DNA of 29,749 nt, taken from contig JAAFKJ010000178.1 of assembly GCA_021399395.1 (NCBI GenBank), positions 1 through 29,749 on the forward strand, given 5' to 3'. The notes under the pieces were generated by a model. It searched no databases, was not told the origin of the DNA, and worked only from the letters and a program-made list of their open reading frames with translations. Both the position numbers and the translations under genes were made by a program. The DNA comes from Candidatus Heimdallarchaeota archaeon (GTDB lineage Archaea; Asgardarchaeota; Heimdallarchaeia; Heimdallarchaeales; Heimdallarchaeaceae). The stretch's first letter is position 1; every line of letters starts with the position of its first letter. Shown here piece after piece: positions 984-23,745 of this stretch.

Positions 984-2705
984 TTAATGGTAAAGATAGA
1001 GAAATCTTTCCATATAATAGAGAAAAACTTGATTATAATACCCTGAAAAGTATAAATCTGATGCATGTCCCCCATATGGAAAAGTTAGCAGAGCACAATC
1101 GCTTCTTCCTAAATTTATGTGCGTGTCTTTAAGTAATTGTGATTGGATTATTAAATGATCTTTTTCACCTTGGAAAATCAGACATGGTGGAGAGCTTGAA
1201 TTAATCAACAGGTAGGGATTAACCCATTCTTGTTTTGAGGTTATCGCAAATATATTACTATTATTGTTAGCTGGATAGTAGGGTATGAACCCTCTGATAT
1301 TCATTTGATCAGAAAAGATGTCAGTATAGTTTCCTGATGCAATACTTAGTGAAACTGCACAGGTGAGTTGTCCACCAGATGACCCTCCAGATACAAAAAC
1401 GGAATTAAGGTTTACTCTGTATTCTGATGAATGTAGTTCCAAAAATGCAGTAAAATTACCTATATGTCTAACCATATCGTCTATAGTGAAATTACTAACA
1501 ACGTTTGCAGGTGGAGGATATACACTCCCTAAATTGGAAGTCATATTTGTCAAACCATATTGAACATCAAATACACAATAACCTTGGGCTGCAAGATAAC
1601 GGTTCATCATTCTTATATTGCCTAACCCTTTATCTCCGATGGTCCATCCCCCACCATGGATTCTGATAATAATTGAATTGTTACCAGGTAGATCTGCTCC
1701 ATTGTTTGGAGGGAGGTACGCATCGAAATACAAGAGCACATTATTGTCAATCGTAAATGCACTCTCACTCCCATTAAAATATAAAACATCTAGAAATGTT
1801 TCACATTGGGGATTTCCGTTACCAATAAAATATCCCATAATTTGAAAGGGCTGTTTGAGAAAATAATCTTCATATCCTGATTGTGAAATCACCTCTTTCC
1901 AATCGCCCCCAAAATACGGATTGAAAGCTTGTGAAAATTCTGCATCAGCTTGAACAACAAAAGAAGGTGTAGAGAATAGAGGAACAAAACAGATACTAGA
2001 AATAATCACACCTATTGATGCTATGATTGAGATTTTAGTTTTGAAGTATTTCTTGTTCATTTTCACGGAATGTAGGAGAATAAATGTGTTGGACATTGCA
2101 CCCAAACCAAAGAAAATTCCCGACATTGCAGCGAAAACTGAGAAGAAGAAGGAGAAAAGTCCAAATCTGAGAGTAGTTAGTATAGTAAGATCTGTAAGAA
2201 TACCAAGAACTAGTCCAATTATATTACCAGCAATAAGTGTAACTTTGAGAAATATCTCCAGTCGCTTCCTTACTGGTTTTTCTTCTTGTGAAACTTCTTC
2301 TTTCTTACTGTATATGAAAAATGCAGTTAAAGTAAGAGGATAGATTAGCACGCCAAAATAGCTCAATCCAATGAGTAAAGCAATTGCAAAGTTAAATCCC
2401 AAACCAACATTGAAACCAATAAAATTAGCTAAAAATAACATGAAATAAGCTAAAATAGAAAACAGAAAATACCCATAAGAGGCTAATCTGAATTTTCTCT
2501 GATTAATATTGGACTTTCCTATTTTACCAAAATAGATAATTGTTACTCCATTAAGAAAGATAGTTGATATAAAGAGAATCCCTGCAAAATTCCAATAATG
2601 TGAATTACTAGGAACAGCTAGATAGACCATCCCATGAATGATACTAATAATATTCAAAAGAATTGAAATCGTACCCAAAATATAGTTGAATCCCTTCTTA
2701 TTCAT
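984..2705 (-). CDS. Membrane-anchored alpha/beta-hydrolase (HSL-family esterase/lipase) with about 7 N-terminal TM helices
   Basis: HGGGW oxyanion motif, GGSSGG nucleophile elbow, GEKD acid and GGH catalytic His. The N-terminal ~245 aa are hydrophobic. Confidence 0.85.
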   Translation of the reverse strand: MNKKGFNYILGTISILLNIISIIHGMVYLAVPSNSHYWNFAGILFISTIFLNGVTIIYFGKIGKSNINQRKFRLASYGYFLFSILAYFMLFLANFIGFNVGLGFNFAIALLIGLSYFGVLIYPLTLTAFFIYSKKEEVSQEEKPVRKRLEIFLKVTLIAGNIIGLVLGILTDLTILTTLRFGLFSFFFSVFAAMSGIFFGLGAMSNTFILLHSVKMNKKYFKTKISIIASIGVIISSICFVPLFSTPSFVVQADAEFSQAFNPYFGGDWKEVISQSGYEDYFLKQPFQIMGYFIGNGNPQCETFLDVLYFNGSESAFTIDNNVLLYFDAYLPPNNGADLPGNNSIIIRIHGGGWTIGDKGLGNIRMMNRYLAAQGYCVFDVQYGLTNMTSNLGSVYPPPANVVSNFTIDDMVRHIGNFTAFLELHSSEYRVNLNSVFVSGGSSGGQLTCAVSLSIASGNYTDIFSDQMNIRGFIPYYPANNNSNIFAITSKQEWVNPYLLINSSSPPCLIFQGEKDHLIIQSQLLKDTHINLGRSDCALLTFPYGGHASDLYFSGYYNQVFLYYMERFLYLYH

Positions 2706-2891
2706 TGATTTTCCTTTCCTATGTTATGCTTAATGGTGTGTCTAGTATCTCTTCACTTTTTACTTCCCGGAAATTATTTCTACTTGAACGGACAATTGCG
2801 AAACCTATCTCAAGAATATACCGTACTTCTTATAGATAGAGGTGATAATTTTAGATATTAAAATATGTTGGAAAAAAAATGAAAGATTGAG

Positions 2892-3974
2892 TTACAATGA
2901 ACTCAAATAATTAAACCATTCAACTACTTTTTCATTAAAGAAACTAATTAGACCTGATATTGTTCCTAAGGCTGAATATACAAACAAAGAATAATATTGC
3001 CATCTAGAGATATTGATTCCGAAGATTGCTTCTAATTTATGCTTGTAGATTTTAATTGGTATATTCACTGCTTTGATAATCTTGAAGTGTTGTTCAAATT
3101 CAAGTCTGAGATTGCTAACTAATTCCTTTGACCATCTTGTTGGAGTTAAGAAGAACTCAACTACAATTTCCTCTGCGCTTGGGTCAAAAAATACTGTTCG
3201 TTGACTTGGTGAAACAACTGCTACATTCCCTATCGCTATTGGTCTAACAATCAGTGTATCTTCAGATAGTCCTTCTATTCTAGTTGTAGCTTCAGTTACT
3301 TTTTCACCCAGTTTTGTTACATTGAGTGAGAAGTATTCTGCTTCTTTCTTATCTAGTTCAAGTTCTTTTATTGTTAGCTCATCTTTGAATTTTTCAGATT
3401 TGATCAAGGTAACTTTTAATCTGAAAACCTCATCCAAACACATATTCTTAGGCAATTGTATGGATAAATCACGAGACATATCATCAAGCACTTCAGCTTC
3501 CTCTTTTATCTCAATTGCTTCTACTACCTCTGCTTCTTCGATCATCTCAGCTTCTTCAGCCATTTCCAATTCGTCATCGAAACCTCCAGCTGATTTTTTG
3601 TAGTCAGCAATTTCCGCAGATTTTGGTGCATAACCCGAACCTGGTGATGGTCCTGTTAGAGCATCTTCATTGTCTTCTTCTGATTCTTCATCAAATACAA
3701 TTTTCTCCCGTTCTTCTTCTCTATAATCAAGAATTGGTTCAGAACTAGAAGGCAATGTTTGTGGTCTAGCACTTTTACTTCGTCTACCCTTTGCTTTTCT
3801 TTTGGATGTGGTTCCAACTTCATAAGATTCTCTGAACATTTTCCTTCGATCTCGTATGTTGAATAATCTATCACCAAAATCAATTTTCCTTGCTGATATA
3901 GCAACTATGATAGCAAAAACTGCAGTCCCGATAAGAACTGCGCCTATCGTATAATATAATGCGTTTAAAGCCAT
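2892..3974 (-). CDS. Hypothetical membrane protein: N-terminal TM, basic then acidic low-complexity linker, beta-rich domain, C-terminal TM
   Basis: 360-aa ORF with hydrophobic segments at both ends and an E/D-rich middle. An oligo-T tract (A-run 2872-2879 on +) lies downstream. Confidence 0.75.
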   Translation of the reverse strand: MALNALYYTIGAVLIGTAVFAIIVAISARKIDFGDRLFNIRDRRKMFRESYEVGTTSKRKAKGRRSKSARPQTLPSSSEPILDYREEEREKIVFDEESEEDNEDALTGPSPGSGYAPKSAEIADYKKSAGGFDDELEMAEEAEMIEEAEVVEAIEIKEEAEVLDDMSRDLSIQLPKNMCLDEVFRLKVTLIKSEKFKDELTIKELELDKKEAEYFSLNVTKLGEKVTEATTRIEGLSEDTLIVRPIAIGNVAVVSPSQRTVFFDPSAEEIVVEFFLTPTRWSKELVSNLRLEFEQHFKIIKAVNIPIKIYKHKLEAIFGINISRWQYYSLFVYSALGTISGLISFFNEKVVEWFNYLSSL

Positions 3975-4116
3975 GAAATATTATTGTAGTACGGTTTAAA
4001 TAAATCTTCTGGAGAACTGTGAAAATTAGCAGAATATGTCACAAAATATTCGATGTTTTACTCACGTAATACGTGTCTTTTTTAATATAGCAATTAGCTC
4101 ACAAAATGGGGTATTC

Positions 4117-4425
4117 ATGGCAAAGAAAATGTGTTATGAAGGTGAGGTCGTTTTTGTTAACAAATATGGTACAAGATACCGTAGATGCGAGAAAACTGAT
4201 TGTCTTTGGAACGCCGATTGTAACGAGATATCAACTGGTGGAATAATGTCTGGAAAGATACGTGTTCCAAGGTTTAAAGCAAGAGTATGTAATTGTTCAA
4301 CAGAGAACCCTGTCGCTTTAACTGAAGCTCTAAAAATGAGTTGTTATCCAATTGAAGAAAGGGTAGCAGGAGATCTAACCAATCTCGAGTTTATTAGAAA
4401 TATGAGACAGAAACAAGCATTATAA
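4117..4425 (+). CDS. Small Cys-rich hypothetical protein (102 aa, 7 Cys)
   Basis: The ORF track starts at 4036, but the in-frame ATG at 4117 follows GGGGT and is the more plausible start. Cys pattern C..CEKTDC..C..CNC..C. Confidence 0.65.
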   Translation: MAKKMCYEGEVVFVNKYGTRYRRCEKTDCLWNADCNEISTGGIMSGKIRVPRFKARVCNCSTENPVALTEALKMSCYPIEERVAGDLTNLEFIRNMRQKQAL

Positions 4426-4467
4426 TGGTTGAAAATTTAAATACTTGTTATTCTACTTGTTCTTGCG

Positions 4468-5172
4468 ATGGACAGGAAAGTTCTAAGAAACATCTTCATT
4501 GCTATAGCAAGTTTAATCGTGATAGCACTTCTATTTGAAATAGTTGCTATGGTTTATTTTCCTGGAGGTAACCACGTTACAGGAGATACTGAGGGATTCG
4601 ATTTCATTTATAACACTTTAACTGATTTGGGAAGAGATCCTACACCAAGTGGGAAACCAAACTTAATCTCACGTCCGTTATATCGTATAGCTATTTTCTA
4701 TATGTCGTTTTTCTCGATTGTCTACCATTCGATTATCTGGAAATTTTTTACCAAGAATAAACTAACCAAATATCTGAGTATTGCCGGTTCTTTCTTTGGC
4801 ATCGCCCAAGCAGGGTTATATATAGGTGTTCTATTTGTTGAAAAACATCCTGAACACAATCAGCTTATAGAGGCAGCAGCTGGATCTTTAATTCTTTCTG
4901 TGTTATTATATACTATAGCATTTTTTAGGAACAAAGATTTTCACAAAATTAACAAATGGACATATTTCTCTATATTCTGTGTAGCAATTATCTATGCAAT
5001 TGTAATCCTTATCGGATTTTTAATAGTAAATTCTGGCGGTTCAAATGTGATATTTGTCACAAGTCAGAGAATAGGCCATACATTATTTAGTTGGTGTCTA
5101 AAAATCTCATTTACCATACAATCAGTGGCAATTTATTACTTTCTAAAACAGAAAGAGGTTGTAGCAGCATAG
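4468..5172 (+). CDS. Polytopic membrane protein, DUF998/Frag1-DRAM-Sfk1-like
   Basis: About 6 TM segments; YFPGG...FDFIYNTLTDLG resembles the DUF998 N-x-(I/L)-S-D-L-G motif; His (HPEHN) before TM4. Confidence 0.6.
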   Translation: MDRKVLRNIFIAIASLIVIALLFEIVAMVYFPGGNHVTGDTEGFDFIYNTLTDLGRDPTPSGKPNLISRPLYRIAIFYMSFFSIVYHSIIWKFFTKNKLTKYLSIAGSFFGIAQAGLYIGVLFVEKHPEHNQLIEAAAGSLILSVLLYTIAFFRNKDFHKINKWTYFSIFCVAIIYAIVILIGFLIVNSGGSNVIFVTSQRIGHTLFSWCLKISFTIQSVAIYYFLKQKEVVAA

Positions 5173-5323: not shown

Positions 5324-6310
5324 TTAATCCATTTTTTCGCCACAGTTACCACAGAATTTGGCACCTGTTTCATTTTTGGACCCACAGTTGGTACAAAACT
5401 TCAATTTTCCTGATTTCTCATCATCTGTCGGATCACCACAGTGGGCGCAGAACTTCGCTGCTGGAGAGACTTTCTTTCCACATTGGTTACAATCAATAAA
5501 AGCTGCTTCAACATCACCTTTTTCTTCAATTTTGGTGGCTTGTTTTATTTCACCTCTAGAGAAAAGATTGTTAACCATGACAGCACCAGTCAAACCACTT
5601 CCACCTTCAGGGAGTTTTTCAACAACTTTAGCCATACCAGCATACTGTTGTACTTGACCTGCTGAAACACCAGAACGCATCCAGAAGAGTCTGTCTCTGT
5701 ATTCAGGTGTAGTATCAATGCCTCCAAACTTTAGTGTTTTTAGCTTGATTCCGAATTCTTTGAGATCAGGTTTTACTTCATCTTCTACGAAATCTGAAGT
5801 TTTTCCTAAATTGGACATTAGATCAACTATACTTTTTTCTGATAGTTTGCTAATAACAGATTCTACAATGAATGAACGGAAAAATTCATTGAATGCAGCT
5901 GTTGTATAGATATTTCTATTACCTGCTATTTCAAATGCGAATTTCTGTATGTCGTCAATCTTGTAGTAATAATCACCAAAGAATTGCACTGGAGCTAATT
6001 CTTGTGTTTGAGATCGCCCTCCGAATTTTCCTTGAAAGTCTGCCATATTTATGAAAATCACTTGACAATTGAATGGTGATTTATCAAATCCAACTATTTT
6101 CGACAAAAATGTTGTTAACAATGGAATATTCTTGGTTTTTATAAAATGTCTACCTGGTTTTAGAACATCAAAGACTACTGAATCTTTGATGAAAACTGCT
6201 ACCTGGTTAGGTAAAACATTACATTGGTCTCCCCAATTCAAAGTGTCACGAGGATGTCTGTACATTATCTCGTCGCCTCGACCTAGGGGCCATTCTATTA
6301 CTTCTACCAT
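5324..6310 (-). CDS. SPFH (band 7) domain protein with C-terminal double zinc ribbons (YdjI-like)
   Basis: N-terminal QCNVLPNQVAVFIKDS...LKPGRH...TKNIPLL, typical of YdjI-type SPFH proteins. C-terminal CNQC/CAHC and CTNC/CGNC. GAGGT precedes the ATG. Confidence 0.85.
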   Translation of the reverse strand: MVEVIEWPLGRGDEIMYRHPRDTLNWGDQCNVLPNQVAVFIKDSVVFDVLKPGRHFIKTKNIPLLTTFLSKIVGFDKSPFNCQVIFINMADFQGKFGGRSQTQELAPVQFFGDYYYKIDDIQKFAFEIAGNRNIYTTAAFNEFFRSFIVESVISKLSEKSIVDLMSNLGKTSDFVEDEVKPDLKEFGIKLKTLKFGGIDTTPEYRDRLFWMRSGVSAGQVQQYAGMAKVVEKLPEGGSGLTGAVMVNNLFSRGEIKQATKIEEKGDVEAAFIDCNQCGKKVSPAAKFCAHCGDPTDDEKSGKLKFCTNCGSKNETGAKFCGNCGEKMD

Positions 6311-7263: not shown

Positions 7264-7424
7264 TTCAATCCCAAATAAAATTCAAGCAACATTCCACAAG
7301 TTACAAATAAAAGCTTTAGTTTGAACAAAAATTCTATTTCTGAGCACTATTTTCTTGAAATCGCTTCGAATCCATTCCGTTTGTAAAAATTTAAGAATAG
7401 GTGAAAGCGACTGTTTGTTTAATA

Positions 7425-9020
7425 ATGCCATCCAAAAAAACCCTCAGTAGACTGAATCACATCTTTGGATTCATCTTGTATTGTCTGTTTCTACTATACT
7501 TTGGCTCATCTATAGCGGCTTTCGTAGTTAATGCATCTGAACTTGGAGCGGGAGGAATAATACTTAATTTCTTAGTCTTAGTTATTGAATTACTAGGTCC
7601 TCTATATGCAACTTATTTCCTTATTCAGAACATTGATGGTGTTCTTGATATCGGATCAGTAGAATATGATATCAAGAAAACTAAAGACCATCCTGCTATT
7701 GATGTAATTGTTCCCGTTCACAATGTAAATCCCAAAATTCTAGATTTAACACTTGAGGGTTGTAGTAAATTCACTTATCCCAATTTCAAAGTCTGGATAG
7801 CAGACGATAATTCCTTACCGGAATTTGAAGAGTCTACACAGAAGCTAGCTCAGAAATATGGTTTTACCTATCTCCGAGGAAAAGGTAGATCCTACAAAGC
7901 AGGAGTTGTTAATCAAGTAATGTCTGAAGCAAAAGCTCAATTTGTTGTAGTTTTTGATTCTGATCAAATACCTGTACCAGATATTCTGGACAAATACATT
8001 GCAATTCTAGAACAACATCCTGAATTTGCCTTTGTTCAAGCAAAATATGAATTCAGAAGCGTGTCTAATTTTCTACATATTTGGGAAACAATGTCTACTC
8101 ACCAATTATTTGTTTCTGAGGGTGGCAAAAGACGAATAAAATCAGTTGTTTTCTTTGGTACATCTGCTTGTTTCCGCAAAGAACACCTATATCCTATGCC
8201 AGAGAACAAGCTTTCAGAAGATTATGACCATTATATCACAATTGCAGCAAATGGCCATTACGGTTACTGGTTGAATGAAGTTGCTGCAAAGGGTTTGTCA
8301 ACAGAATCCTTTGATCATAAGATGTCACAGATGTTTCGCTGGACTAAAGGTCAATTTGGTGCAGTAATGGATCATAAGAAAGAGCTTTTTGTTAGCAAAC
8401 TAAGACTTCGTCAGAGAGTAGATATTTTTATGAGTTCAACTGTTGTGGTTGTTTTGACAGCTTTCTATTTCATGGGTGCGCTCTTTATTGCTCATTATTT
8501 CACAGACATACCTATGTATAGAGCGCTTGGTATTGATCAACTTGCACTTATCATTATGCCAGTAATTATTGCTTTGGTATACTTCGGTGTCTTTGGAGCT
8601 GTAGGAGCCTATTCCAAGAAATCTAACGATTTCAAATTTAGATGGTGGTATGTTCTTTACTTTATGCTATACGGAGCACTAATGGCACCATTCTTACTCA
8701 TTCCTTTAGGCAACGGTTTATTTGGCCGAAACAAGATAAAACCAGGTAAGAAGTTCCAATGGAACAAGAAAATCAGGGTCTATTTGATAGCTGTAATTTA
8801 TACAATTTTAGGAGCTGGGTTTGGCTTCTTAGGAGTAATCTCATTAATGGATTCTTTAAACATAGGTCCCTTTCAATTCTATACAGACCCAAACATGTTT
8901 TACATCATGTTTCTCTCAATAGCTTTCATGTTAATCTTTGCTTTACCATTTGTAGCCATTTCCAAGAAAATTTTCAAAATAGAAGAATATTATACCGAAG
9001 ATGCAAGCATCTACTACTAA
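7425..9020 (+). CDS. Processive GT2 glycosyltransferase, cellulose-synthase-like
   Basis: D,D,D,QxxRW signature: ADD, YKAG, FDSD, FFGTS, SED, QMFRW. Two N-terminal and several C-terminal TMs; no PilZ domain. ATG 7425 preferred over GTG 7401. Confidence 0.85.
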   Translation: MPSKKTLSRLNHIFGFILYCLFLLYFGSSIAAFVVNASELGAGGIILNFLVLVIELLGPLYATYFLIQNIDGVLDIGSVEYDIKKTKDHPAIDVIVPVHNVNPKILDLTLEGCSKFTYPNFKVWIADDNSLPEFEESTQKLAQKYGFTYLRGKGRSYKAGVVNQVMSEAKAQFVVVFDSDQIPVPDILDKYIAILEQHPEFAFVQAKYEFRSVSNFLHIWETMSTHQLFVSEGGKRRIKSVVFFGTSACFRKEHLYPMPENKLSEDYDHYITIAANGHYGYWLNEVAAKGLSTESFDHKMSQMFRWTKGQFGAVMDHKKELFVSKLRLRQRVDIFMSSTVVVVLTAFYFMGALFIAHYFTDIPMYRALGIDQLALIIMPVIIALVYFGVFGAVGAYSKKSNDFKFRWWYVLYFMLYGALMAPFLLIPLGNGLFGRNKIKPGKKFQWNKKIRVYLIAVIYTILGAGFGFLGVISLMDSLNIGPFQFYTDPNMFYIMFLSIAFMLIFALPFVAISKKIFKIEEYYTEDASIYY

Positions 9021-10367
9021 TCATTCCTCTACATAGGATGATTCAGGGAGGAATTCTTCTTCCTTTTTATCTATTATCTCTTTACAGACAGGACATTTAG
9101 GATTAAATCTTAACCATGTTTCTAAATGATCTATGTGGTAGATATTTTCACACAATAAGCATTTTGCTATTTGGGTCCCTCTTTCAATTTTACTATTGCA
9201 TATCATACATTTAGGTAACAACTCTTCACAATTCCAGCAATATTCTTTACCTATTTCATTAGGTCTATTACAATTTGGACACCTAGTTAGTTTTCTATAT
9301 TTGAATACTCGTTTAGTTTTCTGAGCTGTCTTATATAGATACATTCTAGCATTACTGATATCTTCACCAAAGTGTTCTCTCCAATCTAAAATTGGTTTAA
9401 CTATTGCTATTCCGCATACTAGAGAAGATAATGCTATGCGTATTTCTAGTTCAAATATTCCTAAGAAATGAAATACTAGAAACATTGCCACTCCAAAAAC
9501 AAATAAAATCAGATAATTCCTAATGATAATAAATTTGATTGACTTCCCAATTACTTTGAAAACCTCAACAGTTTTTTCATAAATCCAAATCACAAACTTC
9601 TTCATAATTTGAGGAAACTGTTTGATAGCTCTCCACCATGCTTGGAACATAGTTGTGAATACTTTTCCAATTGTCACAAGTATTTCAGCGATTTCCCTTC
9701 TAAAGTGCCAAATGAGGTTGATTAGAATTAAACCTCCTCCAATTAGATACCAGTATAATGGTTTAATCCAAACTAATACTTGAACAGCTGTTAAGATAAT
9801 TACAGTTATACCTGCAACGGATAACAAATTCCAAGGTGATAGGAGTAATTTCCAGTTGATCTTCTTCCAAATATTCTTTATTGCTTCCTTAAGTTTCTTC
9901 AAGAGTGCGATTATTTTTAAATTCAGATCATACGCCTCAAAGAAGAAACCAAAAAGTATCAATATTGCTCCCGCTCCCATCATAATATAATAGATATAAT
10001 CACGATCAAATGCAGTCACACCAACAGCGAAAAGAATTGCAGGAAAAGCTACTAAAATGAATCCTATATATGCTGTTATTGCTCCGGTTACAAAGTAGTC
10101 TATCCCCTTTCTTCTTATTCTTCTTAGAATTAGAGCAAAGAACAAAATCAGTACTCCTATTACAAAGACTCCAAGAACTATTCTAAAGACAAGATCTTCG
10201 TAAGTCATATCCAGAGCTAAAGTAATGACTAAAATCCCAATTATGCTTAAAACTGAAATAGCAAATCCTATCCACAGAGTTGTAATAACAGGATTTCGCT
10301 CTACAAGACCAGGATCTTTAAGCTCCCCTTTCAAATCAATGGAATCCTTGCTGTTCATTTCTTCCAC
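9021..10367 (-). CDS. Polytopic membrane protein with C-terminal Zn ribbon plus RING-type finger (putative membrane E3 ligase-like)
   Basis: About 8 TMs, then CPNC...CWNC, then C-x2-C-x12-C-x2-C-x4-H-x2-H-x3-W-x6-CP-x-C with the RING-type W...CP signature. Confidence 0.75.
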   Translation of the reverse strand: MEEMNSKDSIDLKGELKDPGLVERNPVITTLWIGFAISVLSIIGILVITLALDMTYEDLVFRIVLGVFVIGVLILFFALILRRIRRKGIDYFVTGAITAYIGFILVAFPAILFAVGVTAFDRDYIYYIMMGAGAILILFGFFFEAYDLNLKIIALLKKLKEAIKNIWKKINWKLLLSPWNLLSVAGITVIILTAVQVLVWIKPLYWYLIGGGLILINLIWHFRREIAEILVTIGKVFTTMFQAWWRAIKQFPQIMKKFVIWIYEKTVEVFKVIGKSIKFIIIRNYLILFVFGVAMFLVFHFLGIFELEIRIALSSLVCGIAIVKPILDWREHFGEDISNARMYLYKTAQKTKRVFKYRKLTRCPNCNRPNEIGKEYCWNCEELLPKCMICNSKIERGTQIAKCLLCENIYHIDHLETWLRFNPKCPVCKEIIDKKEEEFLPESSYVEE

Positions 10368-12865
10368 CTCTCTCGAATCTGTTTGAGAAGTTCCTTTGAA
10401 CTACCAGTTCTTAATTTCTTTAATTCTCTTCTAAGTAGGATGAAAGCAACTACTGCTACAACATCGAAGAATGCACCTAAAGAGATTCTAATTGCAGGTT
10501 CAATTGCATCAAATATATGGAAGAAATCAAAATTGAAAATAACAAATATACCATATACCAGAGTGAATATCATCACTACGAGTAGAATCAGTCTAATACC
10601 GTTTTTGTAGATGTAAATTGAAACAGATTTGATTGCTAACAATATTGTAACAGATATTTTGTAGATAGTCTTAGGAATGCTAACTAGGAATTTCCAAAGC
10701 TTCTTTGGATGATAAATGAAATGTGCAAATAGAGTAAATGTACCTCCAATTGATACAATTAGGATAAATGCGACTAGACCGATAATATCATCAAATGCAA
10801 AATAAAGGACTACTCCAACAATTACAGCTGCGAATCCAATGACTCTTGAAATAATAATTCTTTTATTAAAGATGAATGTAAATATGGCTTTGAAAAATTC
10901 ATAGATCTTAACTAAAACAATCTTTCTACTGAACAAGCCACTAATAAGTATAACAGGGATTCCTATCCAAATTAGATAATCATAACCAACAAGAATTAAA
11001 CCATATACTATTAGAGTAACACCACCTGCCACTCCAATCAACCTTAATAGTTCTTTTGTGACGCTCCACCAATGTTTCTTGATGAATTTAGCAACTTCAA
11101 CCATCCAATTCCATATAGCTTTGAAGAAATCTACTATGATATTCAAAAAACGCAAGAAAGGATTGTAAAAGATCTTGATACCTATAAATTTGATACCCTT
11201 CCATACTTGTTTGTAGTGATGAACGGGGATGTAGCAAAAACTAATTACTAGTAGAACAATATACCACCATTCAAACATCCAGGTCACAGAAAGATAGATG
11301 ATTGCGGTAATTGCAACCAAATCTAGTATGTATAACAAGACCTTGAACCAGTTTTCAATGAAAAATTTAGTAAGATTAACTATGACCTTCCATATGTAGT
11401 TTAGTGGTCTCCCTAACCATTTTATAAATTCCCAAAAGGCTAGGGTTATTTCCTTAAGTGCTGCATATATCCTTCTTAATATTGTCATACGTATGAAAAA
11501 TTCTGCTAATAGAATTACTGCAATTCCAATATAAACAAAGTAATAGAAAACTTCATTGACAATTCCATAATAAATAAGGAAGATACCCACTCCAACAAAA
11601 ATCAATCTAACTGTTTCATTAATAATTCTCTTGTAATGTGGTTTGATAATATTCTCCCAGATGAAAGTGAAAATAGCTGAAATCATGTTCCACAAACCTA
11701 TCAAAACAGTTTTTCTAGATAGGATTATAGAACAGATGATAACTACAACACCTATGCCTATGAAGTAAGAAAACTGATCATATACTGTTCCATGATAGAT
11801 GAGATAAGCTCCACCACCAGCTCCAATCAATCTTAATAGCTCTTTTAGAATGGGCCACCAATATTTGAGAATAACTCTTGCAAAAGCAACTATCAGATCC
11901 CATATGAACGATGTAATTGAGGTTAATACATCCCATAACATAGTTAATACAATTTTTCGGGTAAAAACTACACTTATAATTGCAGTTAGTATCCCTAATC
12001 CTATCAAAAATCTGTATTCAACTATTATCACACCAAAATAGATCATTACTCCCCCTCCTGCAGCTCCACTCCATCTGAAAAACTCTCTGAGAATAACCCA
12101 CCAATATTCCTTTATGAGTTTAGCAAAATTGACTAAGCCTTTCCAAATTGAAGTAAGAATCAATTTAAAGAAATTATAAAATTTAGTTAGGACTAAATAA
12201 ATCATATCTACTGCAACATGTTTTATAGCATTCCATATTCTTTTGTGGTGATGAATAATTGGGAAAGCACAACTTACTGAAAGGATTATCATCTTCCACC
12301 AATTAACTTCCCAGAAGATTGCCACAAAAATTATTCCAGCCAGAGATGCTAAATCAAGTGTATAAAGAATGATGTTTAACCAATGTTTTCGAACCCATTT
12401 AGCAAATTTAACCATTAGTTTCCAGAGCTGTTTGAATGGCTCTACAAATAGTTTCCAGATGAATTGATCTAAAAATGTAAGTTCAACAATAATCCCCAAT
12501 ACTATTGACCCTATCCCCCAATATACGAAAAATCTATAACCAAGATAACTCAGATTTAAATTTTCTAGAAATGAGATATTCTTACTAGTTGACATTAGAA
12601 TCAGTAAAAATCCAATAACGACAAAGAATATACCAACTTGTATTTTCTTATTAACTGTCAAATTGTATCTCAGCATCTGTACTGTCAAGTAAAAAACAAT
12701 GACAAGAGAACTCACAATTAGAGAGATGAAGAGGATATCGTTGAGTAAAGCAATTTCCTCGATTACTAGAGAAAGAATAAACATAGTAACGATGATAATA
12801 ACAAAAGAATAGTAAAATACATTTGATAAAACATTATGTACTCTTTTTTCCTTCTCTAGCTCCAT
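10355..12865 (-). CDS. Large repetitive polytopic membrane protein (TM-hairpin plus amphipathic-helix repeats)
   Basis: 836-aa ORF in which hydrophobic helix pairs alternate with W/K/F amphipathic stretches. Overlaps the downstream RING gene by 13 bp. Confidence 0.8.
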   Translation of the reverse strand: MELEKEKRVHNVLSNVFYYSFVIIIVTMFILSLVIEEIALLNDILFISLIVSSLVIVFYLTVQMLRYNLTVNKKIQVGIFFVVIGFLLILMSTSKNISFLENLNLSYLGYRFFVYWGIGSIVLGIIVELTFLDQFIWKLFVEPFKQLWKLMVKFAKWVRKHWLNIILYTLDLASLAGIIFVAIFWEVNWWKMIILSVSCAFPIIHHHKRIWNAIKHVAVDMIYLVLTKFYNFFKLILTSIWKGLVNFAKLIKEYWWVILREFFRWSGAAGGGVMIYFGVIIVEYRFLIGLGILTAIISVVFTRKIVLTMLWDVLTSITSFIWDLIVAFARVILKYWWPILKELLRLIGAGGGAYLIYHGTVYDQFSYFIGIGVVVIICSIILSRKTVLIGLWNMISAIFTFIWENIIKPHYKRIINETVRLIFVGVGIFLIYYGIVNEVFYYFVYIGIAVILLAEFFIRMTILRRIYAALKEITLAFWEFIKWLGRPLNYIWKVIVNLTKFFIENWFKVLLYILDLVAITAIIYLSVTWMFEWWYIVLLVISFCYIPVHHYKQVWKGIKFIGIKIFYNPFLRFLNIIVDFFKAIWNWMVEVAKFIKKHWWSVTKELLRLIGVAGGVTLIVYGLILVGYDYLIWIGIPVILISGLFSRKIVLVKIYEFFKAIFTFIFNKRIIISRVIGFAAVIVGVVLYFAFDDIIGLVAFILIVSIGGTFTLFAHFIYHPKKLWKFLVSIPKTIYKISVTILLAIKSVSIYIYKNGIRLILLVVMIFTLVYGIFVIFNFDFFHIFDAIEPAIRISLGAFFDVVAVVAFILLRRELKKLRTGSSKELLKQIRERWKK
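10700..12450 (-). repeat. Protein-level tandem repeats (~75-95 aa) inside the 836-aa membrane protein
   Basis: Type A units at aa ~162 and ~506 (WxxxxLYxLDL...WW...HHxKxxWxxIK). Type B units at aa ~255, 336, 411 and 599 (WWxxx(K/R)ExxRxxG(A/V)xGG...IYxG...IG...SRK). The A-to-B distance is 93 aa in both copies. Confidence 0.8.
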
Positions 12866-12963: not shown

Positions 12964-14331
12964 CTAGGGTAAGGGATGTAGATAATGCCTATCTACATCT
13001 ACATATTCCTCTCCGTTGTAAACTAGATATTCAGCATGTACATCATGTAATTCGTTATACTTCTGATACCAAGGTGATGTCCCAAGTAATGACCATTTTT
13101 CAGCAATTTCTTTGCTTATCGAAATCTTTTTTTCATTCTCCATTGCTATTTTTATTGATTCTGCAAGAGAAAGAGAGCATGCCAATATAACAGCTGTTGG
13201 AGTTGTTCGAATTGAGGAAAAATTCCAGAGTCTTGTCTTAGCTACAATATAATTAACAATCTCTGCAGGAAAGATTTCTTCGTTTATATTTGATTTTTCT
13301 AAGAGTTTTGTAACCAATTCTTTCAGGTGTGATTCATTAAAAGGGAATTCTTTGGAAATGTCATATACATCAAAACTTTCATCTACAAAAGAAGAGATAT
13401 CTTTTCCTCCCGAAATAATAAAAAGATTGATTTCTTTTTTAGGATACTTTGATTCCATTTTCTGTTTCAAAACGTGAATATCTATATCTATCTCGTCAAC
13501 AAATAATACTAGATTTTCTCCTGGAGATTTTTCCACAACCCATTCAGTGACACTTTCAGCAGAATTTTCCGGGTTAAATTCTACATCAATATATTTTCCA
13601 TCGTCTCCCTTCCAAAACTCAGTTCTATAGATGAATGGCAAAGAAAGATCTTTACACCTTTTCATCAAAGAGTAACAAATTTGAGTTTTACCAGAACCAC
13701 CATATCGACCATAAATGTGCGCGTTCTTCTCAGGTTGAATACCTTCTTTCATTTGGGTAAGTGTTTGATCAAGTATTTGTACCAACGAATGATCTACAAC
13801 AAAATCGTGTCTCATCCAGCAACTATCAGGATTAACGAGTGGTGAATATTGTTTATAGTTGCTAAAGATATCTAGGGCGTCCTCTCTTGTAAAACCTATA
13901 TTTATTTTTAGTATTTCTGTTTCATTATGAGGAAATGGAATTGTCGGAATAACATCTGAGCCATAGAGGAGTGTTCGTGTATTCTTTAGATTAATCTGGT
14001 CTTCTGGCAAGAGACAGTGGTTATTCCTAATATTAATGTGCCACAGATTAGTTTTAGTACGTATATAACTTCTTGAAAATGAATTTGCAAGTCTTACACC
14101 TTCCTCCCAACCAAATTCATCTTGTAGTTTGTCATAAATTAAATCGATGAGTAAAAGATTTTCGAGACTGTAATCAGATTCAGATATAATAATGACTAAC
14201 CCTTCACGCTTTTCTAGAATTTTATCAAAAAGAGTGATTTCCTTATCAAACTCATATACTGCAATGATCTCTGGAAAGATAAGTAATAGTTTTTCAATAA
14301 ATGATTTGAGTATGTCTTCTCTCGAGCTCAT
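12964..14331 (-). CDS. P-loop NTPase (AAA+/STAND-like) with a degenerate nucleotidyltransferase-like N-terminal domain
   Basis: Walker A HIYGRYGGSGKT and Walker B LVLFVDEID. The N-terminal LLPEDQINLKNTRTLLYGSDVIPTIPFP resembles the neighbouring gene's LSPADDFMIMKQGEVLYGVDLRKHFPIP. Confidence 0.65.
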   Translation of the reverse strand: MSSREDILKSFIEKLLLIFPEIIAVYEFDKEITLFDKILEKREGLVIIISESDYSLENLLLIDLIYDKLQDEFGWEEGVRLANSFSRSYIRTKTNLWHINIRNNHCLLPEDQINLKNTRTLLYGSDVIPTIPFPHNETEILKINIGFTREDALDIFSNYKQYSPLVNPDSCWMRHDFVVDHSLVQILDQTLTQMKEGIQPEKNAHIYGRYGGSGKTQICYSLMKRCKDLSLPFIYRTEFWKGDDGKYIDVEFNPENSAESVTEWVVEKSPGENLVLFVDEIDIDIHVLKQKMESKYPKKEINLFIISGGKDISSFVDESFDVYDISKEFPFNESHLKELVTKLLEKSNINEEIFPAEIVNYIVAKTRLWNFSSIRTTPTAVILACSLSLAESIKIAMENEKKISISKEIAEKWSLLGTSPWYQKYNELHDVHAEYLVYNGEEYVDVDRHYLHPLP

Positions 14332-14341
14332 CTGAGTATAC

Positions 14342-15241
14342 TTAGAGGTTCTCTATTATATTTCTTATCTCCATGAATATTCTACTAAAATTTGCATGTC
14401 CTTGGTCTTCTTTGTAAAGAGATTTTAGGTCTGGTACAAATATGCCCTTAATCGTGAATGCTTTTTCCAAGCAAAATAATAAGAGTTCCCGGCTATGTTC
14501 TACTACCCCCATAACACTAGATAAAGAGATATTCCTTTGCCTACACATCGCTACTTCTACAACGAAATCACCTAACTTGCTAAGATATTCATTCGAGAAC
14601 CAATATGCTCCCTTCATTTTCCCAATTATGTCATTATTTTTTATGGAAAACAATACTCTTGAAAGGTAAAGTATCCAATTTGTTGCATGATCATAGTTTG
14701 GGGAATCAGTATGTTGGAAAGGATACGATTTTGCGACTTCTTCTATATTTGGAACCTCTGCTAGAAACTGATGCCAAAAACACTCTATTGGTGGTATAGG
14801 GAAATGCTTTCTCAAGTCTACGCCATATAATACCTCGCCTTGTTTCATAATCATGAAATCATCAGCAGGAGAAAGAGGATATTGGTTGATTATCTCTTGT
14901 TGAAGATTGGCAACTACCATTCCTTCCAAATCTTGGTGATTAATTCTTGGATTTTCTAACATGATATAAGGAACAAAATATGCCCTAAGTATCTGGGAGA
15001 AATCCTTATTCATGGTTGAAAGTTTATCTATAATCGAATCAAGTTCGTTGAAATCTTTTTCCCATAACCCCTTTTCTAAAACAATTATAACCTTAATAAG
15101 ACTGTATCTTTTAGAAAAATCATCTAAAACGACATCACCAAAGAGGATGAAAGATCTCGTTGCAAGAGATGTTGCTGTGAATTCTACAAAAGTTTTGAGA
15201 AATCTAGGTAGCTCTGGATACCTTCCATAGGTGACTTGCAT
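14342..15241 (-). CDS. Nucleotidyltransferase-fold protein, aminoglycoside adenylyltransferase (AadA/DUF4111)-like, apparently catalytically inactive
   Basis: FILFGDVVLDDF...SLIKVIIV aligns with the hhhGS...SDxDhhh motif. GEVLYG and ILYLSRVLFSIKNNDIIGKMKGAYW match the ANT C-terminal helical domain. The catalytic aspartates are absent. Confidence 0.65.
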   Translation of the reverse strand: MQVTYGRYPELPRFLKTFVEFTATSLATRSFILFGDVVLDDFSKRYSLIKVIIVLEKGLWEKDFNELDSIIDKLSTMNKDFSQILRAYFVPYIMLENPRINHQDLEGMVVANLQQEIINQYPLSPADDFMIMKQGEVLYGVDLRKHFPIPPIECFWHQFLAEVPNIEEVAKSYPFQHTDSPNYDHATNWILYLSRVLFSIKNNDIIGKMKGAYWFSNEYLSKLGDFVVEVAMCRQRNISLSSVMGVVEHSRELLLFCLEKAFTIKGIFVPDLKSLYKEDQGHANFSRIFMEIRNIIENL

Positions 15242-15289
15242 AGATTATTGATACCTAGTTAGTAATATTAGCTTTTCGAAAGTATTAAT

Positions 15290-15318
15290 GAAAAAAATAA
15301 GAAAAAGAAAGAAAAAAG
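15290..15318 (-). terminator. Oligo-T terminator tract downstream of the pilin-like gene
   Basis: A-rich tract on + directly after the stop codon at 15322. Confidence 0.45.
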
Positions 15319-15321
15319 ATG

Positions 15322-17100
15322 TTATTGATCTACAAAGAATATTTGCCAAACACCCAATTCTTGAATATAAAATCTAATTTCAAAATCAGCCTTGTCTGTT
15401 CTATCAAAGTAGTCAAATAATATCGTTAATTTATGAATACTTCCTCCATCTAGAACTGCTCCTGTACCACCATTAACTGGTAGAACACTTTCTTGAGCAT
15501 ATGGCTGTCCTGTGGGGTCTAACCAGATTGTTCCATCGGTGTTATCTCTCATCTCAAAGATGTAATCTGCTCTATTATCTGGTTCCCAATCAATATAGAT
15601 TTGAGTAATAGTAATTTCGTTTGGTAAGTTGTTTGTGAGGAAGAAACTAAATGTGCTTCTAGAGAAAAATCCTCTTACACCTACAGCTCCAGATAATGTC
15701 ATTTTTGGATTAGCTACAGACATTAGAATAATAGTTGTTTTTGCATTCATGGCATCAGAAGAATCGTATACAAATGTTACCATTGCGTAATCATCATCTG
15801 GTAATAGATAGCTGTTGAAATCTAGTTCCCATGTTTTATCAATGACATTATATGTAGCTTGATCGTCGATTACATTCTGGTAAAGATAGTAAAAGTCGGT
15901 TGTTTGACTGAAGAAGTAGATGTCAAAGTTTGTTGTATCAATTCCAGATGGATCGTCTGCATAAACCTCAATTGTCAATACTCCTTCTATACCTACAGAA
16001 TTGTTTTCAGGTGTTAAAACATATGATGTTGGTGCGAGAATATCAACTAATGAGAATGCTTTACCTGAGCTATTCAAGTTCCCTACTGCATCTTTTACAT
16101 AAAGTGTAAGAGTAAAATCATCTTCAGCCATAATTGCAGTCTTAAAACCCAACAAATCATAAGATGTAATAGTGTCATCAGTTGCTGTAAATACAGATTC
16201 TGAATTATGAACATCTCCTGATAGTACTAGAGTTTGATTGATTACTGGAGCACCACCTAACTCATCCCACACCCAAGTAGCATTCAAATAATCACCTTGG
16301 TTAATGGATGAATTACTCAAACTCAATGTAACACCGATTGCTTTGTTATCAATATTGAAGGTATTAGTTATAATGTCGGACTGGTTTAAAGCATCATTTA
16401 CAGCGAAGGTCATTTTATATCCTAAATCGTCATCATAATCAGTTGAATCAATGTCTGTTGCTAGATTTTCATCATCAAATACAACAGTTTGATCAGGCAA
16501 AAGGAAATCATAAGTTACACCTGTAGGTAAATACCCTCCAGACACTAATACTTGAGGATCTATAATGCCTTTCACCCAACTACCGTTTATAGGATTTAAA
16601 ACTGTTAACTCTAATGGGTAAATTACACTGGCGTGATTCAAATTTTCTGGAGCAACTGTACTTAAACCATCGCTATAAGTAAGTATTATCTGGAAATTAT
16701 TAGTTCCTACTGAAATATAAGCTGATGGATCAAAAGAAATTGCTATATCCATTCTTGCGGTAACATCGAGCGTTAAAGGAAGCTCTTCCACAACCAGTTC
16801 TGCATTATCAATTGCTATATTCTCTGCTAGAGCATCATTATTTACTGTAATTGTAATATTTGATATTATAGTGCTCGCCGATCCAGAATTTTGTAAAGTA
16901 ATATAGACTAGATCTGTAACATCGTCACCATCACTATCGAACCATTGGGTAGTAACAATATTTACGCTAGCGCTCCCCCTTAATAAGGGTACAACAATAA
17001 AGTAGACCATTGCGCTTGCTGCCACTACTAAACTTATTAAAAGAACGGTTGCAATGACTGGTGAAACGGCTCTTTTTAATTTTCTTATTCTTCTATTCAT
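15322..17100 (-). CDS. Archaeal type IV pilin/archaellin-like N-terminus fused to multiple Ig-like beta-sandwich domains (large minor pilin/adhesin)
   Basis: Class III signal peptide MNRRIRKLKRA|VSPVIATVLLISLVVAASAMVY; LQNSGS motif; D/T/N-rich beta repeats such as YVKDAVGN, DILAP...TPENN and ADDPSGID; GAGGT precedes the ATG. Confidence 0.85.
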   Translation of the reverse strand: MNRRIRKLKRAVSPVIATVLLISLVVAASAMVYFIVVPLLRGSASVNIVTTQWFDSDGDDVTDLVYITLQNSGSASTIISNITITVNNDALAENIAIDNAELVVEELPLTLDVTARMDIAISFDPSAYISVGTNNFQIILTYSDGLSTVAPENLNHASVIYPLELTVLNPINGSWVKGIIDPQVLVSGGYLPTGVTYDFLLPDQTVVFDDENLATDIDSTDYDDDLGYKMTFAVNDALNQSDIITNTFNIDNKAIGVTLSLSNSSINQGDYLNATWVWDELGGAPVINQTLVLSGDVHNSESVFTATDDTITSYDLLGFKTAIMAEDDFTLTLYVKDAVGNLNSSGKAFSLVDILAPTSYVLTPENNSVGIEGVLTIEVYADDPSGIDTTNFDIYFFSQTTDFYYLYQNVIDDQATYNVIDKTWELDFNSYLLPDDDYAMVTFVYDSSDAMNAKTTIILMSVANPKMTLSGAVGVRGFFSRSTFSFFLTNNLPNEITITQIYIDWEPDNRADYIFEMRDNTDGTIWLDPTGQPYAQESVLPVNGGTGAVLDGGSIHKLTILFDYFDRTDKADFEIRFYIQELGVWQIFFVDQ

Positions 17101-22760: not shown

Positions 22761-22815
22761 TCCATCCATCACCTTTTTTTGAATTCCTAAAACTTAAAAT
22801 TTAAAACGACAGTTG

Positions 22816-23745
22816 ATGATGTTTTTTGAGAACCTAATGGAAGATTTACTAATACTTGAGAAGAAAGGCATCCCAATAACGATTATTGGCTTACCTTATG
22901 TAGGGAAAACCACACTTGTCAACTGGCTTAAAAATGAGAAATTTACTAGACCAAAACCCTCAGTAGGAGTAAACTTCGAACAGATTAAGGTAGGAGATTT
23001 AATGTTAAATATTTTTGATATTTCAGGTCAGAAATCTTACAGATCCACCATTTGGAAGTCTTATGTTATGACTTCAGTTGGTATTATATTTACTATTGAT
23101 TCAACTGACAAAGAACAGATAGATGAAGTGGCAAAATGGTACTGGATTATGATTGATGAATGGTTAAAAGGGAATTACTCAGATAAGGTTATACTCTTTT
23201 TAGCTAATAAAGCAGACCTTAAAGATTCATTAAATCTAGAATATATAATTGATAAACTCAATTTGACAAAAATGTCAAATTATCCAGATTTATCATTTCA
23301 GATTTTTAAAACATCAATCAGAGAAAATCAAAATATAGAATATGCAATGAAATGGTTTGTTAAGAAAGTTAACCAACTCATCGAAATTCAGAGAATAACT
23401 CCTGAAGCAATTCTTATCTCAGACACTTCTGGTAATATTATCAGTTTATATGATCCCAATAAAATCATTGAGGATCCAGATATGTTTGTTGGGTATTTGA
23501 AAGCTTTAAGCGGGTTTACTAATGAACTGTTAGGTCATGAAAAGTTTAAAGTAATCAAGGTGAATCCATTCTTCTATTTCATAACTGAAGAGGAGGATTA
23601 TTGCATTTCAATTGCTGTCAAGGATGAATTAACACTTCCCGAAGCAAGAAGACTTTCTTTTCTAATTCAAAACTATCTGAGTAAAAACAAGAAGAATTTA
23701 GACCATGAAGAACTCAATGTGTATATCCACTCGCTTTTTTCTTAG
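22816..23745 (+). CDS. Arf/Sar1-like small GTPase fused to a C-terminal longin/roadblock-like domain
   Basis: G1 GLPYVGKT, G2 KPSVG, G3 FDISGQ followed by YRSTIWKSY (Arf-like R..W..Y), G4 ANKAD, G5 TSI. The C-terminal region from 23401 has a longin-like beta-beta-alpha-beta-beta-beta-alpha pattern (AILISDTSG...YLKALSGFTNEL...). Start TTG 22813 or ATG 22816/22819. Confidence 0.85.
   Translation: MMFFENLMEDLLILEKKGIPITIIGLPYVGKTTLVNWLKNEKFTRPKPSVGVNFEQIKVGDLMLNIFDISGQKSYRSTIWKSYVMTSVGIIFTIDSTDKEQIDEVAKWYWIMIDEWLKGNYSDKVILFLANKADLKDSLNLEYIIDKLNLTKMSNYPDLSFQIFKTSIRENQNIEYAMKWFVKKVNQLIEIQRITPEAILISDTSGNIISLYDPNKIIEDPDMFVGYLKALSGFTNELLGHEKFKVIKVNPFFYFITEEEDYCISIAVKDELTLPEARRLSFLIQNYLSKNKKNLDHEELNVYIHSLFS

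Follow-up and report, generated by a model that had tools for sequence, protein, structure and literature searches.

We analysed a 29,749-nucleotide (nt) stretch of DNA (the window) from a Candidatus Heimdallarchaeota archaeon of the family Heimdallarchaeaceae (GenBank assembly GCA_021399395.1, contig JAAFKJ010000178.1, positions 1 to 29,749). On its minus strand lie the two adjacent genes considered here: REP (P0001; 10355-12865), a single open reading frame (ORF) encoding a repeat-built membrane protein of 836 amino acids (aa), and directly downstream the gene of a membrane RING-H2 protein of 448 aa (P0002; 9021-10367). REP consists of an N-terminal module with four transmembrane (TM) segments, eight units that each combine a hairpin with an amphipathic helix, and a basic tail. 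Its partner has a polytopic membrane domain, a zinc ribbon, a RING-H2-like finger and an acidic tail. The two genes overlap in the sequence ATGA (10355-10358), which holds both the TGA stop codon of REP and the ATG of the RING gene; an alternative GTG start at 10367, nine bases upstream of the ATG, would give a 13-nt overlap.

The N-terminal module of REP (residues 1-129; 12479-12865) is not repeated, ends in an ELTxLDQ motif and is the best-conserved region of the protein (mean identity 0.66 in an alignment of 25 family proteins). Unit A1 (residues 130-204; 12254-12478) opens with an amphipathic helix bearing the conserved Pro143 and continues into a hairpin that carries LYTLD171L and ends in HH205-206. 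It is followed by unit B1 (residues 205-301; 11963-12253), made of a 60-aa amphipathic linker, E261..R264, a Gly-rich arm, an EYR turn and a second arm, by unit B2 (residues 302-383; 11717-11962; supported by fragment-versus-self BLASTP, the B profile and the segment table) and by unit B3 (residues 384-457; 11495-11716), which has a shorter linker. Unit A2 (residues 458-548; 11222-11494), with D515 and HH549-550, is a copy of A1 at an offset of 344 aa, and unit B4 (residues 549-646; 10928-11221) is a copy of B1 at the same offset. The chain closes with two diverged units, C1 and C2, whose likeness to the repeats is weak (residues 647-810; 10436-10927), and a basic tail with 11 Lys/Arg in the segment table (residues 811-836, plus the stop codon; 10355-10435).

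Searching 80-aa fragments of P0001 against the whole protein with BLASTP recovered the order A-B-B-B-A-B plus two diverged units that had been proposed for this ORF from the letters alone (hereafter the sequence-only reading). Its starts for the A units, nt 12382 and 11350, correspond to residues 162 and 506 and fit the first hairpin arms exactly; those for the B units (nt 12103, 11860, 11635 and 11071) are residues 255, 336, 411 and 599, where a WW/ExxR motif precedes each hairpin. The proposed duplication of an A-B block was also found, with residues ~127-332 recurring at ~473-676, 344 aa further on, at E values down to 5e-20 (residues 161-236 versus 505-584 and 204-280 versus 548-624, both E = 5e-20). 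B units recur at offsets of 81, 263 and 188 aa with 40-46% identity and E values down to 5e-23 (241-320 versus 322-401, 40% identity, E = 5e-23; 321-400 versus 584-663, 46% identity, E = 7e-23). Composition correction had been turned off, REP being hydrophobic, and controls were therefore needed, for which the reversed sequence and 20 block-shuffled copies served. The real repeats scored 70-79 bits against at most 37 bits in the controls, and off-diagonal high-scoring segment pairs at E <= 1e-5 numbered 39 in REP, 2 in the reversed copy and 32 over all 20 shuffles. Self-matches weaker than about E = 1e-8 are untrustworthy, including those of the two diverged C-terminal units, which reached only 12 bits against the B profile. 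The possibility that REP is a spurious or low-complexity ORF was ruled out by its conservation over 24 genomes with invariant polar residues.

The hairpins are short. Across the eight units the arms measure 13-24 aa and the whole hairpin 37-43 aa, the first arms are Gly-rich and the turns in the segment table span 2-6 aa in 7/8 units, in agreement with the tight two-TM hairpins and few-residue loops of the sequence-only reading. Between the hairpins run eight linkers of 26-60 aa, with a best 18-residue hydrophobic moment of 0.47-0.68. Compared with 1,000 shuffles, this moment fell within the top 3.2% in five linkers and within the top 7.2% in six, so the claim that the linkers are amphipathic held for most of them; the two linkers for which it did not, AH-B3 and AH-C1, are taken up again below. 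The hairpin arms showed no amphipathicity in the hydrophobic-moment test. The linkers had a spectral peak at 96-100 degrees in 6/8 cases, and on the helical wheel most of their Trp residues occupy the flanks, between the polar and the apolar face, where interfacial helices would be expected to carry them. They hold 22 of the 34 Trp residues of REP. The sequence-only reading had called the helices Trp/Lys helices: over the whole protein Trp, at 4.1%, is the highest of the 20 ORFs in the window, whereas Lys, at 6.7%, is not enriched overall.

Charge is distributed unevenly along the chain, with 61 Lys/Arg versus 17 Asp/Glu in the 350 aa of the linkers and 2 Lys/Arg versus 11 Asp/Glu in the 38 aa of the turns (segment table). 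Given this partition, the positive-inside rule would place all linkers and both termini on one side, in the cytoplasm, with the turns facing outward. Since the turns are acidic, the arms probably span the membrane fully rather than forming a half-inserted wedge. We considered whether the first halves of the linkers might be extra TM helices. This was ruled out by Lys/Arg on both flanks, by unbroken helices of up to 74 residues and by positive insertion free-energy sums, which are approximate: +3.5 to +14 in the best windows of the linkers and, in most arms, about -5 to +3.5 (the weakest, arm 1 of B2, at +6.1). In conservation the linkers equal the arms (mean identity 0.51 and 0.53, respectively) and exceed the turns (0.36), and they are therefore not mere spacers. 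The design described in the sequence-only reading is supported in that the hairpins are tight and the linkers are amphipathic helices rather than additional TM segments.

Eight positions were invariant in 32 aligned A-B blocks, drawn from the window and 16 further loci. In the A units these are the Tyr and Asp of LYxLD, an Ile in arm 1 and the HH pair that closes arm 2; in the B units they are the Glu and Arg of the E..R preceding the hairpin and an Arg following it. The intramembrane Asp and HH motif of the A units and the ExxR of the B units, all pointed out in the sequence-only reading, are thus fixed across the blocks, and in the 25-protein alignment the A-unit Asp and His and the B-unit E..R are invariant or nearly so. 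In each A hairpin the Y/D/HH cluster is expected close to the cytoplasmic end.

AlphaFold predicted the whole of REP as all-helical, with a mean predicted local distance difference test score (pLDDT) of 68 and a predicted template modelling score (pTM) of 0.26 from 25 aligned sequences; the A-B block alone, from 32 aligned blocks, gave a pLDDT of 90.5 and a pTM of 0.43. Helices in the block model cover residues 2-31, 33-54, 60-76, 78-151 and 157-174, and the fourth of these, a continuous 74-residue helix, comprises the whole 58-aa linker together with the first arm of the B hairpin. Each linker is predicted as one unbroken helix, and its two ends must both be at the cytoplasmic face, so that the linkers most likely lie flat in the cytoplasmic leaflet; the simplest geometry would have the linker in the membrane plane, kinked near the E..R motif, a kink that a membrane-blind model would leave undrawn.

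No relative of known structure or family emerged from the searches. The best Foldseek hits had E values of 0.74 for the whole model and 5 for the A-B block, and the best VIA match (Z = 7.4) covered a single hairpin, residues 126-175 of the block, among generic helical hairpins; neither program gave a hit better than helical models commonly receive. A compact transporter or channel fold, the outcome named beforehand as speaking against the curvature proposal, was matched by neither program, and no compact bundle was predicted; with alignments this shallow, the models are weak evidence that REP lacks a compact transporter fold. Pfam-A hmmscan of P0001 returned no family at E <= 1, hence no match to Reticulon, TB2_DP1_HVA22 or Piezo. 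NCBIfam had no match for P0001, P0002 or the unannotated neighbours in the window, a PDB profile search found no solved relative of REP, and the ESM Atlas gave no usable match for P0001 or for residues 1-345 of P0002. A literature search, from which most subscription journals were out of reach, found no paper on the REP family, Asgard membrane RING proteins or archaeal reticulon-like proteins.

REP is a real, conserved polytopic membrane protein outside every described family. We found 25 homologous proteins in a collection of 5.8 billion clusters, and the REP profile matched 24 clusters among 1.84 billion representatives. Among 400 Asgard genomes the gene occurred in 24, all of them among the 31 genomes of one GTDB family (the genome of the window counted), and in none of the other 369; it is single-copy. 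Source records assign the relatives to Candidatus Heimdallarchaeaceae or Heimdallarchaeota, always as 'hypothetical protein', which agrees with the Asgard setting previously supposed. In one cluster representative, P0046 (200 aa), a Rossmann-type N-terminus, taken by eye for a glycine motif that binds nucleotides, is fused to the C-terminal ~90 residues of a REP-family protein; a chimera created by assembly or gene calling is the probable explanation.

Members of the family follow the plan N-A-B(n)-A-B-C, where n ranges from 1 to 4 and the length from 700 to 938 aa; this variation in B-unit number supports the nested duplication history that had been proposed. Two A units are present in 24/25 proteins while the number of B units varies, the exception being P0024 (B-B-A-B); in P0033 and P0034, read by eye, A units appear to be absent. 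A sister family of the same class has homologs of far greater size (1152-1285 aa), which show 23-28 apolar runs, up to about 25 membrane segments and internal repeats of their own. They were reached through the partner gene, as plain hidden Markov model searches miss them, and they align to the C-terminal half of REP over 461 columns (hhalign 97%, E = 8.5e-11).

The partner protein P0002 is itself built of hairpins and W/K-rich helices in its membrane domain. Its zinc ribbon (CPxC..CWNC) and RING (9084-9281) present 12 zinc ligands, all invariant in 11/11 orthologs, and the RING, with the pattern C-x2-C-x12-C-x2-C-x4-H-x2-H-x10-C-x2-C and the signature HLxTW...CPVC, has the eight ligands in cross-brace spacing, the conserved Trp and the CPxC end of a RING-H2 finger. 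In a PDB search with the P0002 family profile, the matches included the RING-H2 E3 ligases Arkadia (7.1e-7), RNF165 (9.4e-7), EL5 (7.2e-5) and RNF38, as well as synoviolin (5.6e-3, profile positions 377-421) and AMFR (1.3e-2); the RING domains alone were matched, with no detectable similarity in the membrane domain. The same genome encodes four UQ_con (E2-like), two ubiquitin and 12 zf-RING_2 matches. Several of the other RING proteins share the ligand pattern, and P0002 is the only one with a many-pass membrane domain. One preprint (bioRxiv 10.1101/2023.07.25.550441) describes Asgard E1-E2-RING cascades that were reconstituted and active in vitro.

As a side observation, zf-RING_2 matches lie on contigs C161, C53, C57, C54, C174, C172, C95, C75 and C135 of this genome (G000; loci L037-L044). 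Several of these proteins have C..C/C..C/H..H/C..C ligands and an H..HL..W....CP.C ending, and the shared pattern suggests a lineage-typical RING variant.

REP and the RING gene are tightly linked. REP is followed directly by the RING gene in 13/20 short loci, the other seven ending at a flank or contig end, and in all nine long loci with REP. Across the 31 genomes of the family, 23 have both genes, one has REP only, one has RING only and six, including two closed genomes, have neither. The pair is therefore present or absent together in 29/31 genomes, a pattern rather than a statistic because the genomes are related. The REP-only case is a fragment at a contig end, and the RING-only case is a truncated form: in genome G001 (L060, 6307-6912, minus strand) a 201-aa remnant comprises the last membrane hairpin and the RING, with no REP-like gene upstream. 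The sequence-only reading did not mention the RING gene, to which REP is translationally coupled through the ATGA overlap and adjacent in every locus that could be checked.

The membrane domain of the partner reaches beyond the REP profile, into two other families of the order (f2 and f4). At all six loci examined there, the RING protein directly follows a polytopic protein of 501-731 aa, with the genes abutting once and overlapping by 4 nt five times. These upstream proteins resemble REP in design, with 12-17 apolar runs and 3-7 long cationic amphipathic gaps, and one contains a fresh 81-aa tandem repeat of 78% identity. Plain hmmsearch found no REP match among them; an hhalign comparison with co-linear C-termini (53%, E = 1.3e-4) is only suggestive of homology. 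The RING pattern is present in 5/6 of the out-of-family partners and degenerate in that of L054. This protein, from the single f2 genome (1238-2836, minus strand), keeps its zinc ribbon, and its RING region is without the two His ligands. At 3/3 loci checked in the sister family, the gene after the 1152-1285-aa REP homolog encodes a protein homologous to the partner's membrane module.

We also compared the two members of the pair with each other. The C-terminal helix-plus-hairpin of REP aligned weakly to the corresponding part of the RING protein (hhalign 59-64%; cross-controls 2%), and the C1/C2 region aligned, again weakly, to the C-terminal membrane part of both the RING protein and the out-of-family partner proteins. 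Homology between the N-terminal 4-TM modules was not supported (hhalign 2%). A complex prediction for REP residues 1-165 plus 650-836 with RING protein residues 20-345 gave no answer (score 0.21, mark 0.32).

Given the coupling and co-occurrence with the RING gene, we read REP as a subunit of a two-protein module rather than as an autonomous reticulon-like shaper. Architecture, one-sided topology, linker conservation, unit elasticity and RING coupling together lead us to favour, tentatively and at a little under an even chance, a two-subunit membrane RING module in which REP would be the large platform without catalytic function and the RING protein the catalytic or adaptor part. With the linkers flat in the cytoplasmic leaflet, neighbouring hairpins would be 4-9 nm from each other, giving an extended flexible belt rather than a bundle. 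Such a belt might occupy, and deform or sense, a patch of the cytoplasmic leaflet and hold the RING protein there, so that membrane or membrane-bound targets, or REP itself, could be presented to the E2-ubiquitin machinery. Effects on curvature or lipid packing are plausible because the belt would necessarily load the cytoplasmic leaflet, and would be a property of the platform rather than its sole purpose. A more specific version, to which we give only a low probability, is an archaeal membrane-embedded ubiquitin ligase machine, in which the belt would locally thin, curve or corral the membrane and the attached RING would ubiquitinate membrane proteins or the Lys-rich cytoplasmic linkers of the belt itself; the sister-family giants would be a RING-less form of the device.

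Several observations weigh against the platform interpretation. As a single sequence, P0002 scored 26.9 bits against zf-RING_2, under the cut-off of 27.3, while in the genome scan it reached 32.2 bits and passed the cut-off. The genomes belong to one class and are related, and gene adjacency among them cannot be counted repeatedly as independent support. The sister-family partner keeps the N-terminal part of the membrane module and has zinc ribbons but no RING, and ubiquitin ligation is therefore not an ancestral or universal function of the pair. The amphipathicity of linkers AH-B3 and AH-C1 was not significant against the shuffles. The non-compactness of the predicted fold is weak evidence because the AlphaFold models are membrane-blind and their alignments shallow (25 and 32 rows). 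Finally, a pure scaffold role leaves the invariant membrane Asp and HH unexplained; they could form a binding or transport site.

This last point underlies one of three alternatives, the binding or transport of an ion, metal or small molecule, in which the Asp, Tyr and HH of the two A units would pair as a site or pathway and the B units act as spacers. The invariance of Y, D and HH in 32/32 A-B blocks, seen also in the 25-protein alignment, and the constancy of two A units in 24/25 full-length members while B number varies are what such a role would look like, and the window has, close by, genes for an FTR1 iron permease and HypA/HypB nickel chaperones. Outside the genus, however, these genes are not kept beside the pair (locus L027), some relatives (P0033 and P0034, as judged by eye) apparently do without A units, and the LD...HH pair is inconsistently kept in out-of-family homologs. 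With no transporter or channel family recognized by sequence or fold, and pTM values that are low (0.26 and 0.43), we consider such a binding or transport role improbable. Much the same low probability attaches to a cell-envelope platform, on which the pair would organize the insertion, anchoring or turnover of surface proteins or polysaccharide, with the zinc ribbon and RING as regulatory or adaptor parts. The suggestion comes from the neighbours: in the window the pair lies between a processive-type glycosyltransferase (GT2) and a 592-aa protein with a pilin-type N-terminus, and two of three sister-family loci (L074 and L075) are flanked by beta-helix/NosD, F5/8-type-C and fibronectin-III proteins. 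Yet the GT2 gene is adjacent in only some loci, the triad of pilin-type, hypothetical and P-loop genes shifts within the genus without the pair, and the presumed outer face, having turns of only 2-6 aa, leaves almost nothing exposed outside.

The curvature generator originally proposed, in which hairpin wedges and in-plane helices tubulate the membrane or stabilize protrusions and vesicles and the RING protein would merely regulate abundance, fits much of the REP chain itself. It would account for the short, tight hairpins of 37-43 aa with Gly-rich first arms, for some 350 aa of amphipathic, cationic, Trp-rich helix all on one side, for the lack of a predicted compact fold and for the elastic unit number, expected of an additive, length-dependent effect; reticulons and REEPs are described in one account (PMC9804665) as double-hairpin wedges that need to oligomerize. 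Against it stand the acidic turns, by which the arms are probably full-span rather than half-inserted, the lack of any reticulon or REEP profile match in Pfam-A at E <= 1, and the fact that REP is single-copy and never found without its partner gene. Moreover, 7/31 genomes of its own family, two closed ones among them, lack REP, which for this reason is no general determinant of shape in these archaea. We regard a stand-alone curvature device as unlikely, while keeping leaflet effects as a possible property of the platform that we favour.

The platform interpretation can be set beside three known systems. With reticulons, REEP, DP1 and Yop1, REP shares tight double-pass hairpins, an amphipathic helix probably in the cytoplasmic leaflet and the lack of a globular domain, all compatible with a wedge. 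It differs in having eight hairpins per chain instead of two, parted by long amphipathic helices rather than a hydrophilic loop, in its acidic turns, which point to full spanning, and in its obligate RING-protein partner gene; no sequence relationship was detected (0 Pfam families at E <= 1). In Piezo, in-plane helices link the units. The resemblance of REP to the Piezo blade lies in one chain carrying many tandem small TM units in what may be an extended, non-bundled membrane structure, which in Piezo curves the bilayer; in one description (PMC9532583) each arm of Piezo is a domed array of nine 4-TM units. The REP unit, however, is a 2-TM hairpin where that of Piezo is a 4-TM bundle, a pore, cap or beam module is missing from REP, and neither sequence (Pfam) nor fold searches gave a match between the two, although the lack of a fold match would say little by itself. 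REP thus belongs neither to the reticulon/REEP proteins nor to Piezo.

The RING protein in turn recalls Hrd1/synoviolin and gp78/AMFR: a multi-pass domain is followed by a RING-H2 finger, predicted to be cytoplasmic, and is paired with a large polytopic protein. Hrd1, too, works with polytopic partners. The domain order is alike, but only the RING itself matches, without detectable similarity in the membrane domain; P0002 has a C4-H2-C2 ligand pattern and a zinc ribbon preceding the RING, and REP is unrelated to Hrd3, Der1 and Usa1. Archaea, to our knowledge, have no endoplasmic reticulum.

Heimdallarchaeia are the archaea closest to eukaryotes, and the REP-RING locus offers a concrete two-gene system bearing on the first meeting of membrane remodelling and ubiquitin signalling at a membrane: a RING-H2 protein is coupled to a partner of hairpins and predicted leaflet helices, both without known relatives. 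Should the two proteins bind each other and the RING prove active, they would make up the first membrane-integral ubiquitin ligase complex to be reported from a prokaryote, none having appeared in the literature searched, and, if the ligase interpretation is true, a prokaryotic counterpart of the eukaryotic ligases of membrane quality control or ubiquitin-dependent sorting. A membrane-bending REP would be a modular curvature device that arose independently and was tuned in length by evolution. Even without either function, the family offers a clear case from nature of repeats expanding within an integral membrane protein.

Elsewhere in the window lie genes for an Arf-family GTPase, an archaeal pilin-type protein, HypA/HypB and the FTR1 iron permease. 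The GTPase (22813-23745, plus strand; 310 aa; Pfam Arf, 1.8e-31) has a C-terminal extension of ~120 aa without a family match. An SPFH/Band-7 protein with two C-terminal zinc ribbons is encoded at 5324-6310 (minus strand); its gene adjoins the RING gene in 5/10 related loci (L023-L026 and L030), with GT2 and FTR1 intervening in the window. The GT2 protein (7401-9020, plus strand; 539 aa), with hydrophobic segments at both ends by eye, was likened to processive polysaccharide synthases, and its gene converges on the 3' end of the RING gene with no intergenic gap. A scan for bacterial-type promoters and terminators, a pattern not applicable to archaea, gave counts equal to those in shuffles. Sequencing runs with matching DNA came from sediment and cold-seep metagenomes, with no RNA run listed.

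In the two sister-family loci mentioned above, large beta-helix/NosD, F5/8-type-C and fibronectin-III proteins are encoded at 2187-4766 and 11346-13919 of L074 and at 11142-13223 of L075, in an operon with the giant REP homolog and its partner in which gene ends overlap. Upstream of REP in the window, at 12964-17100 (minus strand), stand the genes of the 592-aa protein with a pilin-type N-terminus, a 299-aa protein without a family and a 455-aa P-loop protein with GSGKT. This triad travels as a block, and its strand and its place relative to the REP-RING pair change between genomes. The distance between the P-loop gene and REP is 98 nt in the window and ~1.2 kb in three close relatives (L021, 6845-8034; L022, 10851-12031; L029, 5933-7123), where the added stretch could be an extra gene or an insertion without a counterpart in the window.

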